Positions 39,751 through 51,200 of a DNA stretch of 64,000 nucleotides are shown here, one piece after another. The stretch covers positions 2,709 through 66,708 of the forward strand of contig JBBINR010000007.1 in the NCBI GenBank assembly GCA_037443785.1. Reading direction: 5' to 3'. The notes beneath the pieces were generated by a model, which had not been told where the DNA came from, did no database searches, and worked only from the letters and a program-made list of their open reading frames with translations. The stretch comes from Ignavibacteriales bacterium. GTDB lineage: Bacteria > Bacteroidota > Ignavibacteria > UBA10030 > UBA8401. Made by a program: the position numbers and the translations under genes. How positions within the stretch are numbered: position 1 is the stretch's first letter; each line of letters opens with the position of its first letter.

Positions 39751-39786
39751 AAATCCCCGAAACCTTCTTGAGATTTCGGGGATTTT
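39751..39786. terminator. Bidirectional terminator between the convergent permease and fusion-protein genes.
   Basis: aaatccccgaaaccttcttgagatttcggggattt is a perfect 12-bp stem. Confidence 0.7.
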
Positions 39787-39803: not shown

Positions 39804-42800
39804 CTAAAAATCTCCGCCAAGAGAGAAGTAATATTTTGGGGGCGAAAAGTTCTGGTAGGTGTACGACCAGGCAACATCGATCTTGAGCGGCAAGCCGAAA
39901 ATAATCAAGCGCAATCCAAAACCGGTGCCGACTAAAAGATCCTGCGTTACGGTATTGCCGCTCGCCGTTTTTCCAATTCCTTTATAAGCTTTATCGTCTG
40001 TCCACGAAGATCCGACATCCAAAAATGTTGCGCCGGTAATATTATTGAATGCAATCGGCAATCCGCCGGTGACCAAATATTGAATGAACGGATAGCGAAG
40101 CTCGTAGTTCATCAATGCAAACTTCGTCCCATTTTCGACATTGTAATTGTATCCTCGCAGCGGAAGCGCAGGAGTAAGAAACGCATAATCGGCAATGCTG
40201 TTGATCGGAATCCGGTTATTCTCGAACTCGCGGTTAATCCATCCGTCTGTTCCGCCGATAAAAAATCGCTGTGCATTTTTCCCCACGCTGATGCCGCCGG
40301 AATAGCGAATCACAAATGAATAATCTCTCCAAAATTTCGTATAGGTCCGGTAATCAAACGTATATGTTTGAAAGTCAAGCGCATTAGGACCGATATGAGG
40401 ACTGAACATTGCATTGATATTGTACCTCGTTCCGTTGTTCGGTGCGGTATATCCCCACAGCGTGTTGTCATGAATATAGCTGAATGACGGAATAACTAAC
40501 GAACTGTTTTGGTTTGGCTCCGCGCTGTAATCAAGGTTTTCCCGGAGCAGATTCATCCATGCAAGCGAGCCTTCAATCCGGTTGAATCGATCCAACGGCA
40601 GCGACGCCGATAATCCAAGCCCCCATGTTCTGAAGCGGTAAAGAGCGGAATTCCCGTATGAATCATAATTATATAAGAAGCGTGCGGAATGATATCCCTG
40701 AATTCCCCAGTCGATCATTTGGGGAAGATAGTAATACGCAAAAACATAATCGCTGTTTTTCAGGTCAAGGAGAAGATTCGTCAAAAAATAAATTTGATGA
40801 TCCCCCATCATGTCGCTGAACGCCATCATCGTCGTTCCCTGCACACCGTAAAACGTGCTGAACGCTGCGTTTCCGTATATAATATCAGGTGAAAAATTCA
40901 GTTTGTACTTATTAACGATATAATTTCCGTCGCTGTCAATATTATCGGAAACAGCGATATCTTTCTCAGATCCCGGATCGTAATAGGTCTGCTCTTTTTC
41001 TTTTACCGGCTCTTCAGAAAAAACATAATTATTGAAGTCGATCCGAATATTATCTCCGTAGACGCTTGTTGTATCTTTGGGCGCGATAAGATTCGCACCC
41101 GGCGCAGAATCTGTCTGTGTCACGGCAAATAATTTTTTCCGTTTCATATATTCTGTCGGCTCAACCTCGGCAACCTTCAGCGGGTGCTCAAACGGGGTTT
41201 TCAACAAAAAGATATCGAAGCCGGCTTTGTTGAGCGATGAGAAAGCAAGTTTATTTCCGTCGGCGGAAAGCGAAAGCTGATATACTCCCGTAATCGAATT
41301 CGTCACCGGTTTATCTTCACCCGTTTGAAGATTCCGCTCATACACATTGCCGATACCGTTTCGATCCGAAACGTACAGCATTTTTTTCCCATCCTGAGAA
41401 ATTACGGGCGATGTCTCGTCGCTGTTGTTATATTCAATCACGCGTTTGATTTCCTTCGATGCGAAATCGAACGAGTAAATATCGAGCTGCGAATAATCGA
41501 ATCTCGAAATCCTGAAATTATTTGGATGAAGCAGCGGCGTCGTAAAATCACGCCGATCGGACGCAAAATAAATTTTCTTCCCGTCCGGAGAAAATACCGG
41601 ATCGGCATCGGAGAACACATCATCCGTAATATTCTCCAGTTTTTTTGAATTCACGTCATAGACATAGACGTCGGATTGCGATGAAGTGTTTCCAATAAAG
41701 GCAATCTTGTTGCCTTGCTTCGACCAGTCCACCGAGAAAATTCCATCAAGATCAAATTCCAATTTCTCTTCGTCGCCGCTCGCAATATCGATCAAATGAA
41801 CCGCATCGTGATCGCCGCTTTTCACCGCCAAGGCAATTCTTTTTCCGTCAGGAGACCATGACATTCCCGGTGTTAACAAATGAAGTTCTTCAAAATTTTT
41901 CGTCCGCTGGCCGTCAACAATTTTTGTAATTTTATTGTCAATCGTCGAGATAACATACACATCAAAGTAATCATCGCGATCAGAGATGAAGGCGATCTTG
42001 TCTCCCTGCGGAGAAATTGCCGGACTTGTATTATAGAAATTATTTTCTTTTGTGTGATTTGTTATACGCGTCGCAAAATCAGCCGGTTCTTCCCGCTTCG
42101 CTACATCGGGCCAATACACCACTTTTTGTTCTTTCTGCCACCGTTCGGATAATTCTGAAATCGTTAATCCGATAGCGGATTTAAATCCCGCATCGATACT
42201 CCTCGCCCCTTTTACGCGGTGAAGAATTTCAGCAATTTTTTGATCGCCGTACTTGTTGGCGATATAGTACCACACCGATTGTCCGCCGCGATAGGCAAAA
42301 TAGCCTCCGAGATATTCGATCGGCGGAAGATATGTATTAATTGTTGCATCGCGCATAAACATATCGGAATTCACATCCCACTTCAACGCTTCGTACTCGG
42401 CAAGCCCTTCGTTCATCCACATTGGCAATTGAATTCTGATATTATTGGAAATGATCGATTGAATGGAGCCCCCGTAAAACATATCATTGAGCACCGCGTG
42501 AACCAACTCATGGTGAATGACATGCCGAAACTGACGGTAGTTCCCTTCATACGGAAGGACAACACGGTTCTTGAATAATTCCGTTACACCACCGATGCCC
42601 TCTTCAAGATATTCACCGACAATATTCGTCTGTTGAAAATCGTTGTGGGAATTGTATACCATGATCGGAATGCGATTATTCAGCTGATATTTAAACGATG
42701 TACTTATTGATGTGTAGGCAGATTCTGCTGCTGCTGCAGTAAAGTTCGCAATCTTCACCCCGCCTTCGTAAAAATAAATATCGAAGTGATCGGTTTGGAT

Positions 42801-42950
42801 GTATGACCAATTAAACCGCTTATACTGAACTTTATTTTTTCCAAAATTCCCGTCTTGAGAAAGACCAAGCTGGAGTGCTGTGATGCACAGAATCAAAAGA
42901 ATTTTTCTCATAGATTTCCTCATTCCTCTTTCTACAATAACATTTCTCAC
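39804..42950 (-). CDS. Large secreted fusion protein with three modules: an N-terminal HExxH gluzincin-like domain, TolB-like PD40/WD40 beta-propeller repeats, and a C-terminal Omp85/BamA-type beta-barrel.
   Basis: Signal peptide (probably from MRKILLIL). HHELVHAV...NEGLAEY zinc-site-like motif. Repeated PD40 units (ISPQGDKIAFISDRDDYFDVYV, WSPDGKRIALAV, FSPDGKKIYFASDRR, ISQDGKKMLYVSDRNGIGNVY). C-terminal FFIGGTDGWINREF...LRGYNY...FLDVGSSW...GTGFGLRL...YYFSLGGDF matches Omp85 barrel motifs, with a terminal Phe. Confidence 0.7.
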   Translation of the reverse strand: MRNVIVERGMRKSMRKILLILCITALQLGLSQDGNFGKNKVQYKRFNWSYIQTDHFDIYFYEGGVKIANFTAAAAESAYTSISTSFKYQLNNRIPIMVYNSHNDFQQTNIVGEYLEEGIGGVTELFKNRVVLPYEGNYRQFRHVIHHELVHAVLNDMFYGGSIQSIISNNIRIQLPMWMNEGLAEYEALKWDVNSDMFMRDATINTYLPPIEYLGGYFAYRGGQSVWYYIANKYGDQKIAEILHRVKGARSIDAGFKSAIGLTISELSERWQKEQKVVYWPDVAKREEPADFATRITNHTKENNFYNTSPAISPQGDKIAFISDRDDYFDVYVISTIDNKITKIVDGQRTKNFEELHLLTPGMSWSPDGKRIALAVKSGDHDAVHLIDIASGDEEKLEFDLDGIFSVDWSKQGNKIAFIGNTSSQSDVYVYDVNSKKLENITDDVFSDADPVFSPDGKKIYFASDRRDFTTPLLHPNNFRISRFDYSQLDIYSFDFASKEIKRVIEYNNSDETSPVISQDGKKMLYVSDRNGIGNVYERNLQTGEDKPVTNSITGVYQLSLSADGNKLAFSSLNKAGFDIFLLKTPFEHPLKVAEVEPTEYMKRKKLFAVTQTDSAPGANLIAPKDTTSVYGDNIRIDFNNYVFSEEPVKEKEQTYYDPGSEKDIAVSDNIDSDGNYIVNKYKLNFSPDIIYGNAAFSTFYGVQGTTMMAFSDMMGDHQIYFLTNLLLDLKNSDYVFAYYYLPQMIDWGIQGYHSARFLYNYDSYGNSALYRFRTWGLGLSASLPLDRFNRIEGSLAWMNLLRENLDYSAEPNQNSSLVIPSFSYIHDNTLWGYTAPNNGTRYNINAMFSPHIGPNALDFQTYTFDYRTYTKFWRDYSFVIRYSGGISVGKNAQRFFIGGTDGWINREFENNRIPINSIADYAFLTPALPLRGYNYNVENGTKFALMNYELRYPFIQYLVTGGLPIAFNNITGATFLDVGSSWTDDKAYKGIGKTASGNTVTQDLLVGTGFGLRLIIFGLPLKIDVAWSYTYQNFSPPKYYFSLGGDF

Positions 42951-42956
42951 AACCGA

Positions 42957-45146
42957 TTAGTGCCGACGCCTTTTCCCCGGTTTCTTTTGTTTTGCCTTCT
43001 CTCCAATATCATTTTCGGCAAGCACAAAATCAATCTGCCGGCGTTCGGGATTGACCTTGGCCACCTTGACAATTACAGAGTCTCCAAGGCGATAACGATG
43101 CCCGCGTTTTTCTCCAATCAACGCATACTGGCGTTCATCGTAGGAATAATAATCATCATTCAAATCACGAACGTGCAAAAGCCCTTCGACCAAAAGATCA
43201 TTGATTTCAACAAAAATTCCGTACTGCATCACGCCGGAAATAATCCCTTCAAACTCATCGCCGATGTGCTGCTTCATATATTCCACCTGCATCACTTTAA
43301 TCGTCTCGCGTTCGGCTTCTGTGGCAACTCGTTCGCGGTCGGAAGAATGCCGGCACATTTCCGAAAGATGTTTTTCGAAATATTCTCTCCTGCTCGGATG
43401 TATTCCGCGGTGATACTCGTCGAGCAAACGATGGACGATCAAATCGGGATACCGGCGAATGGGTGACGTGAAATGCGTATAGTGCGAAAACCCCAAGCCG
43501 TAATGCCCGATATTTTGCGGGGAATATACTGCTTTTGCCATACTTCGAAGCGCCACCTCGGAAATAACGTTTTCTTCCTTTGAATCTTTCACGTCGCTTA
43601 ACAATTTCTGTAATTCTTTAGACGATGCAGATTCATTAATGTTTAATGTATAACCGAATTTTTGCACGAACATTGAAAGGTTTCGCAGTTTATCCGGGTC
43701 CGGTGTGGCATGAATACGGTAGACAAAGGGAAGAATTTCTTTTTTCTTTGCAATCGATGAGATATAGGTTGCCACCGTTTGATTTGCAAGGAGCATACAT
43801 TCTTCAACCAACTGATGACTTTTCAAACGTTTCTTGATATTGATTTCAACCGGTTTCCCTTTTTCATCATAGCGGAATTTTGCTTCCGGCGAATCGAAAT
43901 CGATGCTGCCGTTCTTCATCCGTTTCTTTCGCAGAATCTGCGCAAGAGACCAGAGCGTCGCCAATTCATTGACGAAATCGCCTTTTTTATCATCGAGAAT
44001 TTTTTCTACTTCTTCGTATGTGAACCGCCGTTTTGAATTAATGACACTTCTCGTAAATGAGTAGTCGGTTATTTTCCCGCGATTCGAAACCGTCATGAAG
44101 CATGTATAGGCAAACCGATCGACGTGCGGCATTAAGCTGCACAGTTTATTGGAAAGTTTTTCGGGAAGCATCGGGATGACTTGATTGGCAAGATACACGC
44201 TTGTTCCGCGTGAGTATGCCTCTTCATCAAGCCGAGTTCCTTCTTTCACATACGCGCTGACATCAGCAATGTGTACACCAAGCGTATACGATCCATCCGA
44301 AAGATGGTCAATCGAAAGCGCATCGTCAAAATCTTTTGCATCGTACGGATCAATTGTCACGATCGTCGCACCGCGAAGATCCGTTCGCTTCGAAATTTCT
44401 TCGGCGGGAATTGTTTCTTTGAAAGCGGCAACTTCATGTTCAACGTCTTTCGGAAAGGACGTTGGGAGTCGAAACGCTTGAATCACGGAGCGGACTTCAA
44501 CAAACGGATCACCGGCTTTCCCAAGCACGGCGATGATTTTTCCTTCGGGATTTAGCTGAACGTCCTCCCATGCCAATAATTCTACGGTTACTTTATCGCC
44601 GGCCCGTGCACCGCGTAATTCGTTGGCAGAAATATAAATATCACGGTGCATCGTTGGATCATCGGGAAGAACGAAATAAAAATTTTGACTCCGTTCAAGT
44701 GTTCCGATAAATTCGACATGATTTCGCTTTATCACCGAAAGCACTTCACCTTCAACCAACCGTTCGACATTCGTCAAATGTTTCTTAGCAGCAAACAAAG
44801 AAACATTCACCGTATCGCCGTTTAACGCTGTTCCCATGGATTTTTTATCGATAAAAATCTCTTCGCCCTTTTCGGTCGTAACAATACCGAATCCCTGTTT
44901 TGTAATAACGATTGTTCCGGCAATTCCGCCGGATTTTTTCGAGATTTTGTGATATCCTTTTTTCTTTGTCCACACCAATTCGCCTTTTTCAACCATTTTA
45001 TGAAGGATGTCGCGCATCGCTTCAAAATCATAATCGGTGGTAATATTCAACCGGCGTTTCAACTGGCGCGATTTGAAGCCTTCATGCGGATGCTTATCCA
45101 GGTATGCAAGAATTTTTGTACGAAACTCAGATCTGTTCATAGTCAC
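42957..45146 (-). CDS. rnr: Ribonuclease R (RNB-family 3'-5' exoribonuclease).
   Basis: 729 aa with an N-terminal HTH/cold-shock region, the RNB catalytic domain (DPYDAKDFDDALS, HYGLGFSHYTHFTSPIRRYPDLIVHR), an S1 domain and a basic C-terminal tail KQKKPGKRRRH. Confidence 0.92.
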   Translation of the reverse strand: MTMNRSEFRTKILAYLDKHPHEGFKSRQLKRRLNITTDYDFEAMRDILHKMVEKGELVWTKKKGYHKISKKSGGIAGTIVITKQGFGIVTTEKGEEIFIDKKSMGTALNGDTVNVSLFAAKKHLTNVERLVEGEVLSVIKRNHVEFIGTLERSQNFYFVLPDDPTMHRDIYISANELRGARAGDKVTVELLAWEDVQLNPEGKIIAVLGKAGDPFVEVRSVIQAFRLPTSFPKDVEHEVAAFKETIPAEEISKRTDLRGATIVTIDPYDAKDFDDALSIDHLSDGSYTLGVHIADVSAYVKEGTRLDEEAYSRGTSVYLANQVIPMLPEKLSNKLCSLMPHVDRFAYTCFMTVSNRGKITDYSFTRSVINSKRRFTYEEVEKILDDKKGDFVNELATLWSLAQILRKKRMKNGSIDFDSPEAKFRYDEKGKPVEINIKKRLKSHQLVEECMLLANQTVATYISSIAKKKEILPFVYRIHATPDPDKLRNLSMFVQKFGYTLNINESASSKELQKLLSDVKDSKEENVISEVALRSMAKAVYSPQNIGHYGLGFSHYTHFTSPIRRYPDLIVHRLLDEYHRGIHPSRREYFEKHLSEMCRHSSDRERVATEAERETIKVMQVEYMKQHIGDEFEGIISGVMQYGIFVEINDLLVEGLLHVRDLNDDYYSYDERQYALIGEKRGHRYRLGDSVIVKVAKVNPERRQIDFVLAENDIGEKAKQKKPGKRRRH

Positions 45147-45148
45147 TT

Positions 45149-48100
45149 TCAGAAAGTGAAGCGGTAAAAAATTCGAGCGCCAAAGCTCGTGCGGGCTTGA
45201 ATCGAGTAATCGAAATTCTCAGTCTTTTTTTCTATCTCGAGCATGAAATTTCTTTTTTGTTTATCACCAAGCGGATATTGAAAACTGATGTTTGCATTAT
45301 TCACGTCTGAAAACACGCGGCCCCCGGCGTTGATCGTCGCATCCAAAAATTCCAAGCCAAATCGTACATCCGGATCGGCGCCAACCTGTCGAACTTCAAA
45401 AGATTTAACAAACGGAATATTATTCTTCTGGACGAATTCCATAACGTACGATGAGAGCATGCTGTTTACAAACGTCAAGCTGACATTGGAGAGCTGATCT
45501 GCAATTCTTTTTTGATCATCCGCTGTCAATTCATCGCGGAATTTCCCCGGCACGCCAGTCGATGAGGTAAGCAGGAATGACACTGCATCGTTTTCAACAT
45601 CGCCCGTACGTTCTGTCTCTTTGCCGGATTGATCGATTGTCTTTAATCCAATCTTTAATTTTGGCTGTATCCTGTTGCCGGTAATTGTTAATGTGACTAC
45701 GGCTCTTTCGGTTTTCTTTTCATCATTAAACGGTTGATGCGTTCCTTCATAGGTTGCGAGAATATTCAACTGCGGATTTTGAGGATCGCCGACAAACGTT
45801 AACGATCCGCTCGCGTTAAATTTTTTATAGAACGTATAGTTTGACTCATTGCCAACGTTGATCGTCCCTTTCAGCTGGACACCATTTTCACTTTTCGAGA
45901 GAACTAATTTTCCATTTAATTCAGCGTACAATTCTTCGTACGCTCCGGCATTTGCATTAAACACCATATCCACACGCACCGGTCCACGCGTCTGAATCGT
46001 CAATTCATAACCGAAACCGTCCAAAAATGTTTTTTCACTTTTCAGCGGAACAACAGCAATCGCCTGAATCGATTTTGCAATGGTTTCAACGAATGAGGTA
46101 TCCCTCTTCGGTTTCGATGTATCATCAACAAACTCCACGGTGTTAATAACAGAGGAAGAATATGATGTTGCTTGCTGAGTGGGGGGAAAAGTAAGAAAGC
46201 CTTGTTGAATATAAACAATACCGGCAACATGGGAACGATCAAAACTTCCATCGAATCGTAAGCTGTCACTTCCTGTTGAAGCGACTAATGTCCCAAAAAA
46301 AGTGGAACCGGTAGAACGAGAACGATCAGAAAGAATCAATAGCTCTCCTTTGGCTGTAAGGTGGTATTGATTCGGGACAAATCCGTTCATCACGATGTGA
46401 CCTCCGATATTCATTTTTCCTTCACTATAGTCGGACGGGACATTTGAAACAATAAGAGCCGGAAAACGAACTCGATTGCTGTCAAAGAGAAGTGTGCCGG
46501 CTGCGTCATACCGCAATCCGTTCATTTCAAAGACAAAATGTCCCTCTTCCAGCGTTGCCGTTCCATCAATAATTGGTTTTTTCATCGAGCCGCCGACATG
46601 GATGGCGCTTTTTATCCTTCCCGTAATTTCCTTTAACTCGGGAATAAATGGATCCAACGTTGAAAACTGCAGATTAGAAGTTGACAAAGAAACATCGAGA
46701 CCTTGAAAGTTTAATCGGTCAGGAACATCAACTAACCGCAAATCAATTGGAACATGTCCTTTCAGTACGATGTCTTTTGTTTTACTCGAATCCGGACTGT
46801 TTGAAATTTCAACGTTAATTGAAGCAAGGGTTTTTGCATAATCAATAATTGCACTTAAATTTCCCCATGGCGATTGCTGATACGACAGTGAATCACCCTT
46901 TACAGAAACTCTGAAATGAGGATCGTTTAATGAACCTTGAATCTCAGCATCGGCATTAATCGTGCCGCCCAAATTCATTACATAATCTTTAAATTCCGAA
47001 GATGATGTAAAATAGGAAAGATCGGAAAATTCGAATCCCTTCACTGCGGCCTTTGCCCTTATGCGGCCGTCAAATTCATATTGACCGGCAACCGAAACGG
47101 TTTGTGCCCGATGTAAAAAACTCGCAGAATCGACGGTAATTCCCTTTTGATCCATTTGAACGGCAAGAGCACCGTCATTAGAAAGCAAATACCCTCGATA
47201 TTTTACAAACATTTTTGAAAAATCAAATCGTTCAGACAAAGGAGAAATGAACATTTTTCCCTCGGCACCGACTGAAATTGTTGTATCAAGGTCAGAATAC
47301 GCGTTGATTGAGCCGATGGAATCATCAACATTCATTTGAAAATTAACAAACCTTAGAAGTGTTTTTCCAATCAATAATTCATTTGCAGTCGATTGAATAT
47401 TAGCAGTCATTGGAAGGACCACACTTCGAGCAAATTTTGGTTTGTCAGAAATTGAATACTCGACATTGATATTTTTTCCTTGAATCGATGTCGAATCTTG
47501 GTCATACAGGAATTTTTGCAAATTGATTTTCCCGCCCATCGAAGCAGTTTTATTATTGCCTTCCATAACACCCGCGAGAGTTCCCTGAGCATCGAATTGC
47601 GGAAGTTTAAAAAAAAGAGTAACCGGGCGGAGGTTCTTAACAAGAAAATCGTATTTCATACGGTGAGTCGTTGTATCATCGGCAATATTTTCGATAGAAT
47701 CTTGCTGAACGATAAACGTAGAATCAACGATGTGTCTTTGATATGAATACAATTGACTCATTTTTTTCACATTTCGCTCGAGAGTTTTAAGAAACCCTGC
47801 AAATGTAAAAAATCCGGAAATTTCTCCGTCGGCAACGGGAGATTGGACACTAATCGTTCGTTTGTGTAATGAATCAACAGAGATTTTTACAACGGCATGA
47901 GCTGAATCAATTGCTGAATGTTGAAACACGGAAGGATAAATTTCTACCCGGGTCTGAGAATTACCGGCAAGCAAATCAAGACTTTCGGCCGATCGTTGAA
48001 TATTGAATGATAATCGCGTTTGATAATATTCGTCACGGAAAATAGGAGCAAGATTTAACCCATTCGCAGTTGCAGAAACACTGTACGACGGAACAGTTCG

Positions 48101-49624
48101 GGTAAAATCAATATTTCCGTTTGAAACGATCTGTCCATCGGGAGACGCTACTGTCAACTGTGCATCAATTTTTTTCTCTTTTGCTTTTAGTTCTAATGCG
48201 GCAGACGAAACAGGGATTCCGCGAATGGATGAAGAATCAATCTCAATACGGGCTTCAGCATTCAACTTGTCTATCGATGTTCCTTCGCCTTTAATATAGG
48301 CTTTGGTATTCAAATGGGTGACAAAATCCGACGTCGTAAATATTTTTTCAAGATTTACATCCGTTCCCGCAAGCAGTCCTTTATAGTGAAGATTATCTTC
48401 CGTAATAATCATTTCGCCATCCACTTTCACAAGTCCTGCGGCAGATTTTATTGTCGAAACTACCATAAAATCTAACGGTCTGCCAACATATTGGAAATCC
48501 ATCGTTACCTTGCCGAGTGACGAATAATCAGGAATCCTAAAATACGGCATCAAGGCAGGAATATCTGCGGGATTAATCTCGCTTTGCTTTGAAACAATAT
48601 TCAGATGTAAATCTTTCGGTGTATGAAGATCGGAAATGGAACCGGAAAACCGGAGCGTTGTTTGGGCAAAAGACGCATCAAATTTTTTAATGCTTAATTG
48701 ATCAAACGTTCCCTGCAATTGTGCATCAAGAAAAATTTTCCCTTTCAGAAAATAGAGTGAAGGAAGGAAAATTTGGAGATCATTCATGGCGACTGTTGAC
48801 GATACAACCGTTACTTTTGTCGGCGCTCCTTGAAATTTTTTCAAATCAGTCGCTTTCAAGACTTCCACGCCAAGAAGCGTTGCCTCCATCGAAATTTTAG
48901 AATTCGGAGTTTCAATCGTCAATTCTTTTACGATAGCTGAATCTTTCGTGTATAAAACATCAGTCGAAAGATTATCGAGTACAAATTTTTCCCGGGGTAG
49001 CTTCAACGACAAAGATTTGACCACGGCAGAAATTTTTTTTGCAGAATAGAAGACTTTCGAATCAAGATTCAGATTGGTAATTTTGAGATTCGAATAATTG
49101 ACGGTTTTGTTTCCTTCAATCGTGGTGCTTGAATTGAAATCGCCCGTAGAGTCAATAAGTCTAAACGATGCATTGCGAATCGCAATTTTTTCAACATTAA
49201 CGACAATCGCAGAAGGAACTGAATCCGGCTGGGAAGCTGTTGTATCGAGCCGGCTTACATTCCAGACTCCGTTTTTTGAGCGAATAAGATTGATCGAGGG
49301 ATTTTCAATTTGAATGGAATTCACAGAAATTTTATTTCTCAGCAGATCAAACGCATCATAGTGAAGTGAAATCCGCCCCGATTCGACAAACGGAGCATTA
49401 TCCACATACACCATAACCGTATCAATCGTAAAACCCGAAATAAGATTGCCGTTAATTTCACCAAGGTACACGGAAGCATTGAGATTAGATTCAATAACCT
49501 TGTACAGTATTGATTGAAGGTTTGATCGAAACAAGCTTGTTTGAGAGTAAATGGCAAGCGCCCCCATCATCAGCAACAATACACCCAATAAATACAAAAA
49601 TATTTTCGAAACCGTTTTTGTCAT
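45149..49624 (-). CDS. tamB: TamB/AsmA-like translocation and assembly module protein (DUF490 C-terminus).
   Basis: 1491 aa with a single N-terminal TM anchor, a long beta-rich repeat region, and a C-terminal DUF490-like segment ending GARIFYRFTF. Confidence 0.75.
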   Translation of the reverse strand: MTKTVSKIFLYLLGVLLLMMGALAIYSQTSLFRSNLQSILYKVIESNLNASVYLGEINGNLISGFTIDTVMVYVDNAPFVESGRISLHYDAFDLLRNKISVNSIQIENPSINLIRSKNGVWNVSRLDTTASQPDSVPSAIVVNVEKIAIRNASFRLIDSTGDFNSSTTIEGNKTVNYSNLKITNLNLDSKVFYSAKKISAVVKSLSLKLPREKFVLDNLSTDVLYTKDSAIVKELTIETPNSKISMEATLLGVEVLKATDLKKFQGAPTKVTVVSSTVAMNDLQIFLPSLYFLKGKIFLDAQLQGTFDQLSIKKFDASFAQTTLRFSGSISDLHTPKDLHLNIVSKQSEINPADIPALMPYFRIPDYSSLGKVTMDFQYVGRPLDFMVVSTIKSAAGLVKVDGEMIITEDNLHYKGLLAGTDVNLEKIFTTSDFVTHLNTKAYIKGEGTSIDKLNAEARIEIDSSSIRGIPVSSAALELKAKEKKIDAQLTVASPDGQIVSNGNIDFTRTVPSYSVSATANGLNLAPIFRDEYYQTRLSFNIQRSAESLDLLAGNSQTRVEIYPSVFQHSAIDSAHAVVKISVDSLHKRTISVQSPVADGEISGFFTFAGFLKTLERNVKKMSQLYSYQRHIVDSTFIVQQDSIENIADDTTTHRMKYDFLVKNLRPVTLFFKLPQFDAQGTLAGVMEGNNKTASMGGKINLQKFLYDQDSTSIQGKNINVEYSISDKPKFARSVVLPMTANIQSTANELLIGKTLLRFVNFQMNVDDSIGSINAYSDLDTTISVGAEGKMFISPLSERFDFSKMFVKYRGYLLSNDGALAVQMDQKGITVDSASFLHRAQTVSVAGQYEFDGRIRAKAAVKGFEFSDLSYFTSSSEFKDYVMNLGGTINADAEIQGSLNDPHFRVSVKGDSLSYQQSPWGNLSAIIDYAKTLASINVEISNSPDSSKTKDIVLKGHVPIDLRLVDVPDRLNFQGLDVSLSTSNLQFSTLDPFIPELKEITGRIKSAIHVGGSMKKPIIDGTATLEEGHFVFEMNGLRYDAAGTLLFDSNRVRFPALIVSNVPSDYSEGKMNIGGHIVMNGFVPNQYHLTAKGELLILSDRSRSTGSTFFGTLVASTGSDSLRFDGSFDRSHVAGIVYIQQGFLTFPPTQQATSYSSSVINTVEFVDDTSKPKRDTSFVETIAKSIQAIAVVPLKSEKTFLDGFGYELTIQTRGPVRVDMVFNANAGAYEELYAELNGKLVLSKSENGVQLKGTINVGNESNYTFYKKFNASGSLTFVGDPQNPQLNILATYEGTHQPFNDEKKTERAVVTLTITGNRIQPKLKIGLKTIDQSGKETERTGDVENDAVSFLLTSSTGVPGKFRDELTADDQKRIADQLSNVSLTFVNSMLSSYVMEFVQKNNIPFVKSFEVRQVGADPDVRFGLEFLDATINAGGRVFSDVNNANISFQYPLGDKQKRNFMLEIEKKTENFDYSIQARTSFGARIFYRFTF

Positions 49625-49627
49625 CAG

Positions 49628-50110
49628 TTATTTTTGCGAGAACCTGCTTACAATAGTTTCGACGATCCCTGTGGTCGATTTGTCCGGGACAAACTCAATC
49701 GTTTGCACCGTCCCGCCAGCCCGTTCTACCACATCGCGTCCCACAATATCATTCAATGCATAGTCTGCACCTTTGACAAGCACATCCGGAACCAGCGTTG
49801 AAATAAGGTTGAACGGAGTATCTTCGCTGAACAAGCATGCGGCATCAACACACACAAGCTGCGACAGAATATAAGCACGATCACTTTCGGAGACAATCGG
49901 ACGCAGCGGGCCTTTGATTCTTTTTACCGATTCATCGGAATTAACGCCAATAATCAATACATCGCCAAGACGTTTTGCCGCGGCTAAATATTCTACATGG
50001 CCGCGATGAAGAATGTCGAACACTCCGTTGGTGAAGACAACCCTTTTGCGCAGTTGTTTCCACAACGTTCGTTCTTTTTGAAGTTCTGGAAGTGAATAGA
50101 CTTTTCCCAT
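49628..50110 (-). CDS. hldC: D-glycero-beta-D-manno-heptose 1-phosphate adenylyltransferase (RfaE domain II; cytidylyltransferase fold).
   Basis: 160 aa. VFTNGVFDILHRGHVEYL is the nucleotidyltransferase HxGH motif. Confidence 0.85.
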   Translation of the reverse strand: MGKVYSLPELQKERTLWKQLRKRVVFTNGVFDILHRGHVEYLAAAKRLGDVLIIGVNSDESVKRIKGPLRPIVSESDRAYILSQLVCVDAACLFSEDTPFNLISTLVPDVLVKGADYALNDIVGRDVVERAGGTVQTIEFVPDKSTTGIVETIVSRFSQK

Positions 50111-51097
50111 TTATCGTACAAGTTGAGATTGTAATACCCCAGGATCAATCGGAACAATCCCGACTTCACCGCAGACGATACCTCCCGCGGTGTTGGCAAT
50201 CTCCGATGCTTCTTGTATCGTTGCACCGGCCGCGAGCAGCAATGTAAGTGTTGCAATAACCGTATCCCCCGCACCGGAAACATCCGCAACATGACGTGCC
50301 ATGGTTGGAATAGTCGTCATCGATCCGTTTTTTTGGAAAAGAGACATTCCTTTTTCACTTCTTGTTAACAAAATATTTTCGGCGTTCAATTTTTCCAGTA
50401 AAATTTTACCGGCAGCAACAACATCGTCTTCTGTTTTTAATTTCTTTCCCAGGGCTTCTTCAGTCTCTTTTTTATTGGGTTTAAAGACAGTGACATTCTT
50501 ATATTCAAAAAAATTATTAAACTTAGGATCGACCGTGACAATTTTGTTTTTCTTTTTCGCTAAGGCAATGATATTGACCAGAAGATCTTTAACGACAACC
50601 CCTTTGTTATAATCTTCAATAATTATCCCATCAAGCCCGTCGATATTCTTTTCAAGCGCTGAAAAAATCTTTTGTTGTATCTCTTCATTCACATCCTTTT
50701 TGTCTTCGCTGTCGATTCGAACCACATGCTGGTCGTGTGCAATCACTCTCGTTTTCACCGTCGTCGGCCGTGAAGCATCGGTGACAATTCCATCGGATGA
50801 ATTCTTGTCGTTGATCAAAAACTGACGAAGCTCCTCTCCGCTTCGATCATTGCCAACAACTCCCACTAGAAATGCCGAAGCGCCTAACGAAGTAATATTA
50901 TTGGCGACATTGGCTGCTCCGCCAAGCCGTGAAGTCTCACTGTCGACTTCTACGACGGGAACAGGGGCTTCCGGAGAAATGCGTGATACACGCCCCCACA
51001 CATAACGGTCGATCATCACATCTCCGATAACGGCAATGCGTTTTGAACGTGCGGAATGAAATAATTGTTTGATTCGGTCAGATGTAAATGCAGGCAT
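50111..51097 (-). CDS. hldA: D-glycero-beta-D-manno-heptose-7-phosphate kinase (RfaE domain I; PfkB carbohydrate kinase).
   Basis: IAVIGDVMIDRYVWGRVSRISPEAPVPVV...GGAANVANN is the HldE kinase-domain signature. A C-terminal PfkB motif GAGDT. Confidence 0.88.
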   Translation of the reverse strand: MPAFTSDRIKQLFHSARSKRIAVIGDVMIDRYVWGRVSRISPEAPVPVVEVDSETSRLGGAANVANNITSLGASAFLVGVVGNDRSGEELRQFLINDKNSSDGIVTDASRPTTVKTRVIAHDQHVVRIDSEDKKDVNEEIQQKIFSALEKNIDGLDGIIIEDYNKGVVVKDLLVNIIALAKKKNKIVTVDPKFNNFFEYKNVTVFKPNKKETEEALGKKLKTEDDVVAAGKILLEKLNAENILLTRSEKGMSLFQKNGSMTTIPTMARHVADVSGAGDTVIATLTLLLAAGATIQEASEIANTAGGIVCGEVGIVPIDPGVLQSQLVR

Positions 51098-51171
51098 TGA
51101 GTAATTCTATTTTGTTCGATAATTACTATGAATATACCCATTCTCCAAACCAGTATCAACGAGCAGGAAAT

Positions 51172-51200
51172 AAAAAACCCCGCTATTCGCGGGGTTTTTT
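51172..51200. terminator. Terminator hairpin between the hldA start region and the end of the T9SS cluster (symmetrical).
   Basis: aaaaaaccccgctattcgcggggtttttt. Confidence 0.65.

Follow-up and report, generated by a model that had tools for sequence, protein, structure and literature searches.

Gene organisation of the locus

The window analysed here is a stretch of 64,000 nucleotides from an Ignavibacteriales bacterium (GenBank assembly GCA_037443785.1, contig JBBINR010000007.1, positions 2,709 to 66,708 of the forward strand), and all coordinates are counted from its first letter. Five genes of its minus strand form a string of 11.3 kb which, from 5' to 3', contains hldE-kinase, hldE-adenylyltransferase, tamB, rnr and a gene encoding a peptidase-propeller-Omp85 fusion protein. 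The genes and the features that border them are:

51172..51200, minus strand: hairpin terminator AAAAAACCCCGC-GAATA-GCGGGGTTTTTT, belonging to the T9SS-tail gene upstream and read directly from the sequence
51131..51159, minus strand: promoter-like TTGATA-17-TATATT, placed 33 nt before the string's first gene
50111..51097, minus strand: D-glycero-beta-D-manno-heptose-7-phosphate kinase (HldE domain I, here a gene of its own; TIGR02198, PfkB)
49628..50110, minus strand: D-glycero-beta-D-manno-heptose-1-phosphate adenylyltransferase (HldE domain II, likewise a gene of its own; TIGR02199)
45149..49624, minus strand: TamB-family (AsmA-like) protein, 1491 aa, membrane-anchored at its N-terminus (orthologue matches, profile)
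42957..45146, minus strand: RNase R (rnr), 729 aa (TIGR02063; RNB, CSD2, OB_RNB and S1 domains)
39804..42950, minus strand: peptidase-propeller-Omp85 fusion gene of the WD40-like Omp85 subfamily (ORF, Pfam, AF2, Foldseek)
39751..39785, minus strand: strong hairpin terminator with a 15-bp stem, 19 nt past the fusion stop codon

The sequence-only reading had described tamB, rnr and the fusion gene as one tightly packed string. The three minus-strand open reading frames and the gaps of 2 nt (tamB-rnr) and 6 nt (rnr-fusion gene) were found as claimed, but the packed string also includes the two heptose genes, with 0 nt between them and 3 nt between the adenylyltransferase gene and tamB. The hairpin at 51172..51200 delimits the transcription unit on its upstream side; it was absent from the pattern-scan listing, probably because its T-run was absorbed into the stem. 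The promoter-like site matches 10 of 12 consensus positions, of a consensus that may not be the promoter type of this phylum. At the other end, the terminator sits in the short gap ahead of a convergent permease gene, and inside the unit the scan for minus-strand terminators gave only two weak matches with 5-bp stems, both in the tamB coding sequence. The genes from hldE-kinase to the fusion are predicted to form a five-gene transcription unit with terminators at both ends, and would be co-transcribed. A search against Rfam found no RNA element within or near the string.

The heptose kinase scores 388.5 bits with TIGR02198 (cut-off 345) and also matches PfkB, and the adenylyltransferase scores 196 bits with TIGR02199 (cut-off 181.5). 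The gene between tamB and the fusion encodes RNase R, as had been proposed, with 805 bits for the TIGR02063 equivalog, well above the cut-off of 597.85. The idea that RNase R has a function within the string was considered and dropped, as no evidence supported it.

Taken alone, the window TamB matches only DUF748/AsmA in Pfam, at its N-terminus and slightly below the cut-off (46.2 bits, cut-off 50); it scores 92 bits with the NCBIfam TamB model (cut-off 825), and a PF04357 search of this copy gave no match. PF04357 is matched by six of 18 syntenic orthologues (best 3.2e-27) and by many relatives, and the orthologue profile matches the E. coli TamB chains 9xdc_B (7.6e-10) and 23sp_B (8.8e-6). 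The tamB call for this gene was borne out through these matches: the N-terminal anchor, read from the sequence, and the AsmA-like body are joined by DUF490 (PF04357), found by way of the orthologues, and by the profile match to E. coli TamB. The C-terminus of the protein is ...RIFYRFTF; across 18 orthologues F1491 never varies and Y1487 hardly does.

Architecture of the fusion protein

The longest open reading frame of the fusion gene has a GTG start and encodes 1048 aa, the length that had been reported for the protein. However, the true start is probably M14 at 42911, which gives 1035 aa, because a 100% identical database protein has 1035 aa and GAGGAA lies upstream of this codon. The parts of the protein are, in order, a signal peptide, a zinc peptidase, a TolB-like propeller, a disordered linker and an Omp85 barrel:

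42855..42911, minus strand: signal peptide MRKILLILCITALQLGLSQ, predicted by reading the sequence
42072..42815, minus strand: gluzincin peptidase domain, with HELVH at 42498..42512 and NEGLAEYE at 42390..42413
41199..42014, minus strand: PD40 beta-propeller of the TolB type, with about 22 strands in roughly six blades (PD40, profile, Foldseek)
40839..41123, minus strand: predicted disordered, poorly conserved linker of about 95 residues (AF2, alignment)
39807..40838, minus strand: 16-stranded Omp85 barrel with C-terminus SLGGDF (AF2, Foldseek, Pfam of orthologues, hhalign)
40143..40163, minus strand: L6 motif PLRGYNY of the barrel
40011..40025, minus strand: strand-13 motif FLDVG of the barrel

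The signal peptide shows no lipobox. The peptidase domain belongs to clan MA(E), with 45.9 bits for Peptidase_MA_2 (PF13485; cut-off 32.4). Across 34 fusion homologues there is no variation in HELVH and NEGLAEYE, nor in the zinc-site residues H134, E135, H138 and E168, and the domain is a predicted M1-like zinc domain with an intact active site, which would be catalytically active. Membership of the true M1 aminopeptidase family, whose marks include an N-terminal beta domain and a C-terminal ERAP1_C-like domain, was rejected: the spacing from HExxH to E is 29 residues instead of 18, the place of the GxMEN exopeptidase motif is taken only by GGVTE, 27 residues upstream, and no M1 Pfam family matched the fusion. 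Similarity to the M1 fold is limited to the catalytic core (112-152 aligned residues), and the structure model of the peptidase alone is poor (pLDDT 51.5).

The propeller has 90.7 bits for PD40 and a pLDDT of about 80-90 in the AF2 model, and TolB is its top match (5e-15 by profile and 1.4e-14 by Foldseek against TolB chains). PD40 beta-propellers are also found in tricorn and S9 peptidases, where the propeller gates substrate access; the fusion differs from these in having a metallopeptidase instead of a serine peptidase as catalytic domain, and from TolB in lacking the TolB N-terminal domain and a Tol-Pal gene context. The linker, residues 597-691, has a pLDDT below 50 and lies where POTRA domains would be expected; its final 23 residues, NKYKLNFSPDIIYGNAAFSTFYG (40845..40913), are strongly conserved. 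Pfam searches for POTRA gave no match in the window fusion or in 120 relatives, so the protein lacks even the single POTRA that is a usual mark of Omp85 proteins.

In the AF2 model, residues 692-1031 form about 16 strands by DSSP, a barrel of the BamA/TamA fold. Foldseek gave TamA 4c00 (3.7e-11), the TamA barrel 8us4 (TMt 0.72) and BamA barrels (TMt 0.60-0.64). Both Omp85 motifs are present, with R919, G920 and Y923 (PLRGY) and F963, D965 and G967 (FLDVG) invariant in 34 sequences, and they align to SLRGW and FADYG in an hhalign comparison with a POTRA+PF01103 family (E 2e-5). The window copy is unmatched by PF01103 even at E<=10, and 12 of 34 orthologues are matched (best 1.3e-15). The structure result that would count against an Omp85-type barrel ending in Phe was thus not obtained. 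The full-length AF2 model (mean pLDDT 68.8, pTM 0.53) does not fix the relative placement of the domains. Profile searches against PDB sequences, with the full protein and with the peptidase domain, found TolB, and neither an Omp85 protein nor a peptidase. Taken together, Pfam, AF2 and Foldseek agree with the domain order read from the letters alone, an HExxH...E peptidase, a TolB/PD40 propeller and a POTRA-less Omp85 barrel.

The subfamily and its gene neighbourhood

The fusion protein belongs, as an orthologue, to the WD40-like Omp85 proteins, a subfamily that was catalogued in 2014 (Heinz & Lithgow, Front Microbiol 5:370; PMC4104836), and is structurally of the identical kind, with the TolB-like propeller and the aminopeptidase-like domain before the barrel that characterise it. 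Its architecture is not new, and the word unusual, used for the protein earlier, does not apply in the sense of novelty. Table S3 of that article records barrel, TolB and aminopeptidase matches, and accessions resembling those of Ignavibacterium album and Melioribacter roseus appear in it three times each, so that the architecture exists independently of tamB. The article accepts the WD40-like and noNterm subfamilies as Omp85 members without POTRA, and the passages and tables consulted do not mention a tamB-rnr-hldE operon in Ignavibacteria (PMC4104836). A 2015 paper on TAM evolution makes no mention of Ignavibacteria, a 2024 paper still counts the WD40-like subfamily among those not well characterised, and the literature searched gave no functional study or experiment on any member. 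The element that appears to be unreported is the conserved Ignavibacteria operon that joins the fusion with tamB, rnr and two LPS-heptose genes.

At least 6982 homologues of the fusion were found, and at least 580 stretches of a species-level genome collection were matched by it. The search with the barrel only gave 193 clusters (50% identity, E<=1e-30), whose complete members are mostly 980-1170 aa long and carry the barrel C-terminally. Between the same pairs of genomes, the fusion shows 47-78% identity versus 22-50% for TamB. These sequence comparisons show a large WD40-like Omp85 family that is strongly constrained.

Gene order was counted among relatives with less than 65% identity. The directly upstream rnr is kept in 33 of 55, tamB in 28 of 45 and hldE in 28 of 44, while the downstream permease is kept in one of 58; the string order is held in about 60% of these distant relatives and the downstream neighbour in 2%. 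Furthermore, the string was found on the deepest branches of the fusion protein tree, and its gene order is, by this comparative evidence, ancestral in Ignavibacteriota. The tamB link is broken at about 20 of 72 evaluable loci, spread over several clades with Kryptonia among them, and is gone in about a third of lineages. The survey of tamB neighbourhoods proposed by the sequence-only reading therefore gave an order conserved across Ignavibacteriota, and the findings that it had named against itself, among them absence of the string from relatives, were not encountered.

Role of the fusion protein and the question of a TamB partner

PlpD, a patatin-like Omp85 protein formerly assigned to "type Vd", shares with the fusion an N-terminal enzyme domain on an Omp85 barrel, but PlpD is a homodimer with a patatin lipase and a single POTRA, in place of a zinc peptidase and propeller with no POTRA. 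Its enzyme domain, from the only Omp85-enzyme fusion tested, is exclusively periplasmic, as are POTRA and other N-terminal regions of Omp85 proteins (PMC11116518). By analogy, the N-terminal domains of the fusion are most likely periplasmic. We give about an even chance to the fusion being a peptidase that is anchored in the membrane, faces the periplasm and serves envelope quality control, with topology, catalysis, substrates and co-transcription all predicted. BAM would insert the barrel into the outer membrane, and the peptidase and propeller would remain in the periplasm, tethered beneath it. The propeller may bind or filter unfolded polypeptide, which the peptidase would cleave, and the outcome would be quality control or processing of envelope proteins on the inner side of the outer membrane, as by BepA at BAM. 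BepA, an M48 peptidase with TPR, differs in being a separate soluble protein of another peptidase family, with no barrel. A transcript shared with tamB and the LPS-heptose genes would tie the level of the fusion to outer-membrane growth, and a physical complex with TamB would not be needed. Against the quality-control role, the barrel keeps insertase-type motifs that would be superfluous in a mere anchor, and the conserved linkage to tamB may signify more than co-expression.

A non-canonical TAM-like pair had also been suggested. Here the fusion would be the outer-membrane partner of the adjacent TamB, whose last strand (...YRFTF) would pair with barrel strand 1 in a hybrid barrel of the kind known from E. 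coli TamAB, with the peptidase and propeller in place of POTRA. The conserved packing behind this suggestion stands, with tamB one gene from the fusion, but the partnership itself is weakened and we regard it as unlikely. Like TamA and TamL, the fusion has a 16-stranded Omp85 barrel and a gene close to tamB; the best matches of its barrel are the TamL and TamA models and, by structure, TamA, TamB retains its terminal aromatic residue with F1491 invariant, and strand 1 and the barrel lumen are all that hybrid-barrel pairing involves (PMC12800296). In addition, TamB orthologues of this class have an Omp85-family gene as neighbour in two independent layouts, namely the present string and, in one Ignavibacteria lineage, a convergent arrangement with a TamL-like POTRA-Omp85 gene; in a neighbor-joining tree without support values the convergent tamB groups within the TamB clade of Ignavibacteria, which points to an orthologue and not a paralogue. 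Nevertheless, POTRA1-3 of TamA all contact TamB (PMC12800296) and the fusion has none of them, it lacks the lipobox of TamL, and its barrel scores far under the NCBIfam cut-offs (24 bits for TamL, cut-off 400; 17 bits for TamA, cut-off 625). Ignavibacteria also encode POTRA-bearing non-BamA Omp85 proteins (I0AH83_IGNAJ, I6ZXI7_MELRP), and the I. album-type accessions in PMC4104836 suggest three fusion paralogues per genome. A TamB partner encoded elsewhere would be normal, since the essential tamL and tamB genes of Bacteroidota are unlinked (PMC12045153). Gene order alone cannot make the fusion the TamB partner, because the cytoplasmic RNase R, which lies between the two genes, is conserved equally and by the same logic would be a partner too, and because of the losses of the tamB link described above. 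A fuller version, in which the fusion docks TamB, the peptidase-propeller replaces POTRA and lipid or protein delivery is coupled to proteolytic proofreading, is a little less likely still.

The sequence-only reading had also proposed an outer-membrane assembly or secretion module gated by the protease and propeller; its domains are present, and a protease-propeller module on an Omp85 barrel is tenable as a hypothesis. A dedicated insertase, with a BamA-like active barrel that serves a special set of outer-membrane proteins, the propeller in the manner of a fused BamB scaffold and the peptidase as an accessory, was proposed by Heinz & Lithgow 2014 (PMC4104836) and seems improbable to us. The L6 RGY and strand-13 FxDxG are invariant and a Gly lies four residues from the fusion C-terminus. 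Strand 16 of BamA has a Gly at the same distance from its end. However, the L6 and strand-13 motifs may be common to Omp85/TpsB proteins generally and so non-diagnostic, the propeller resembles the six-bladed TolB and not the eight-bladed BamB, and the zinc site is invariant, which speaks for the importance of catalysis. Most doubtful is a surface-displayed peptidase, exported through or beside the barrel in a type V-like manner so that a proteolytic FCB-group bacterium could digest protein outside the cell, since the autotransporter-like passenger-linker-barrel layout with its flexible linker of about 95 residues, the M1-like peptidases and PD40 propellers frequent in nutritional peptidases, and the mention of this option for Omp85-enzyme fusions by Heinz & Lithgow are set against the periplasmic precedent of PlpD (PMC11116518), the sealing of the TamA barrel pore by extracellular loops (PMC12800296), the T9SS tails that surface enzymes in the window carry instead, and the envelope-biogenesis neighbours and single-copy, housekeeping-like conservation of the gene, which do not fit a nutritional role.

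The operon in itself reveals no new kind of system. The outer-membrane protein that serves TamB outside Proteobacteria is still debated and, if the fusion did dock TamB, outer-membrane lipid or protein delivery would be tied to proteolytic proofreading. The operon gives a concrete, testable lead on the function of WD40-like Omp85 proteins and on the partner of TamB, in a phylum with cultured members such as Ignavibacterium album and Melioribacter roseus.

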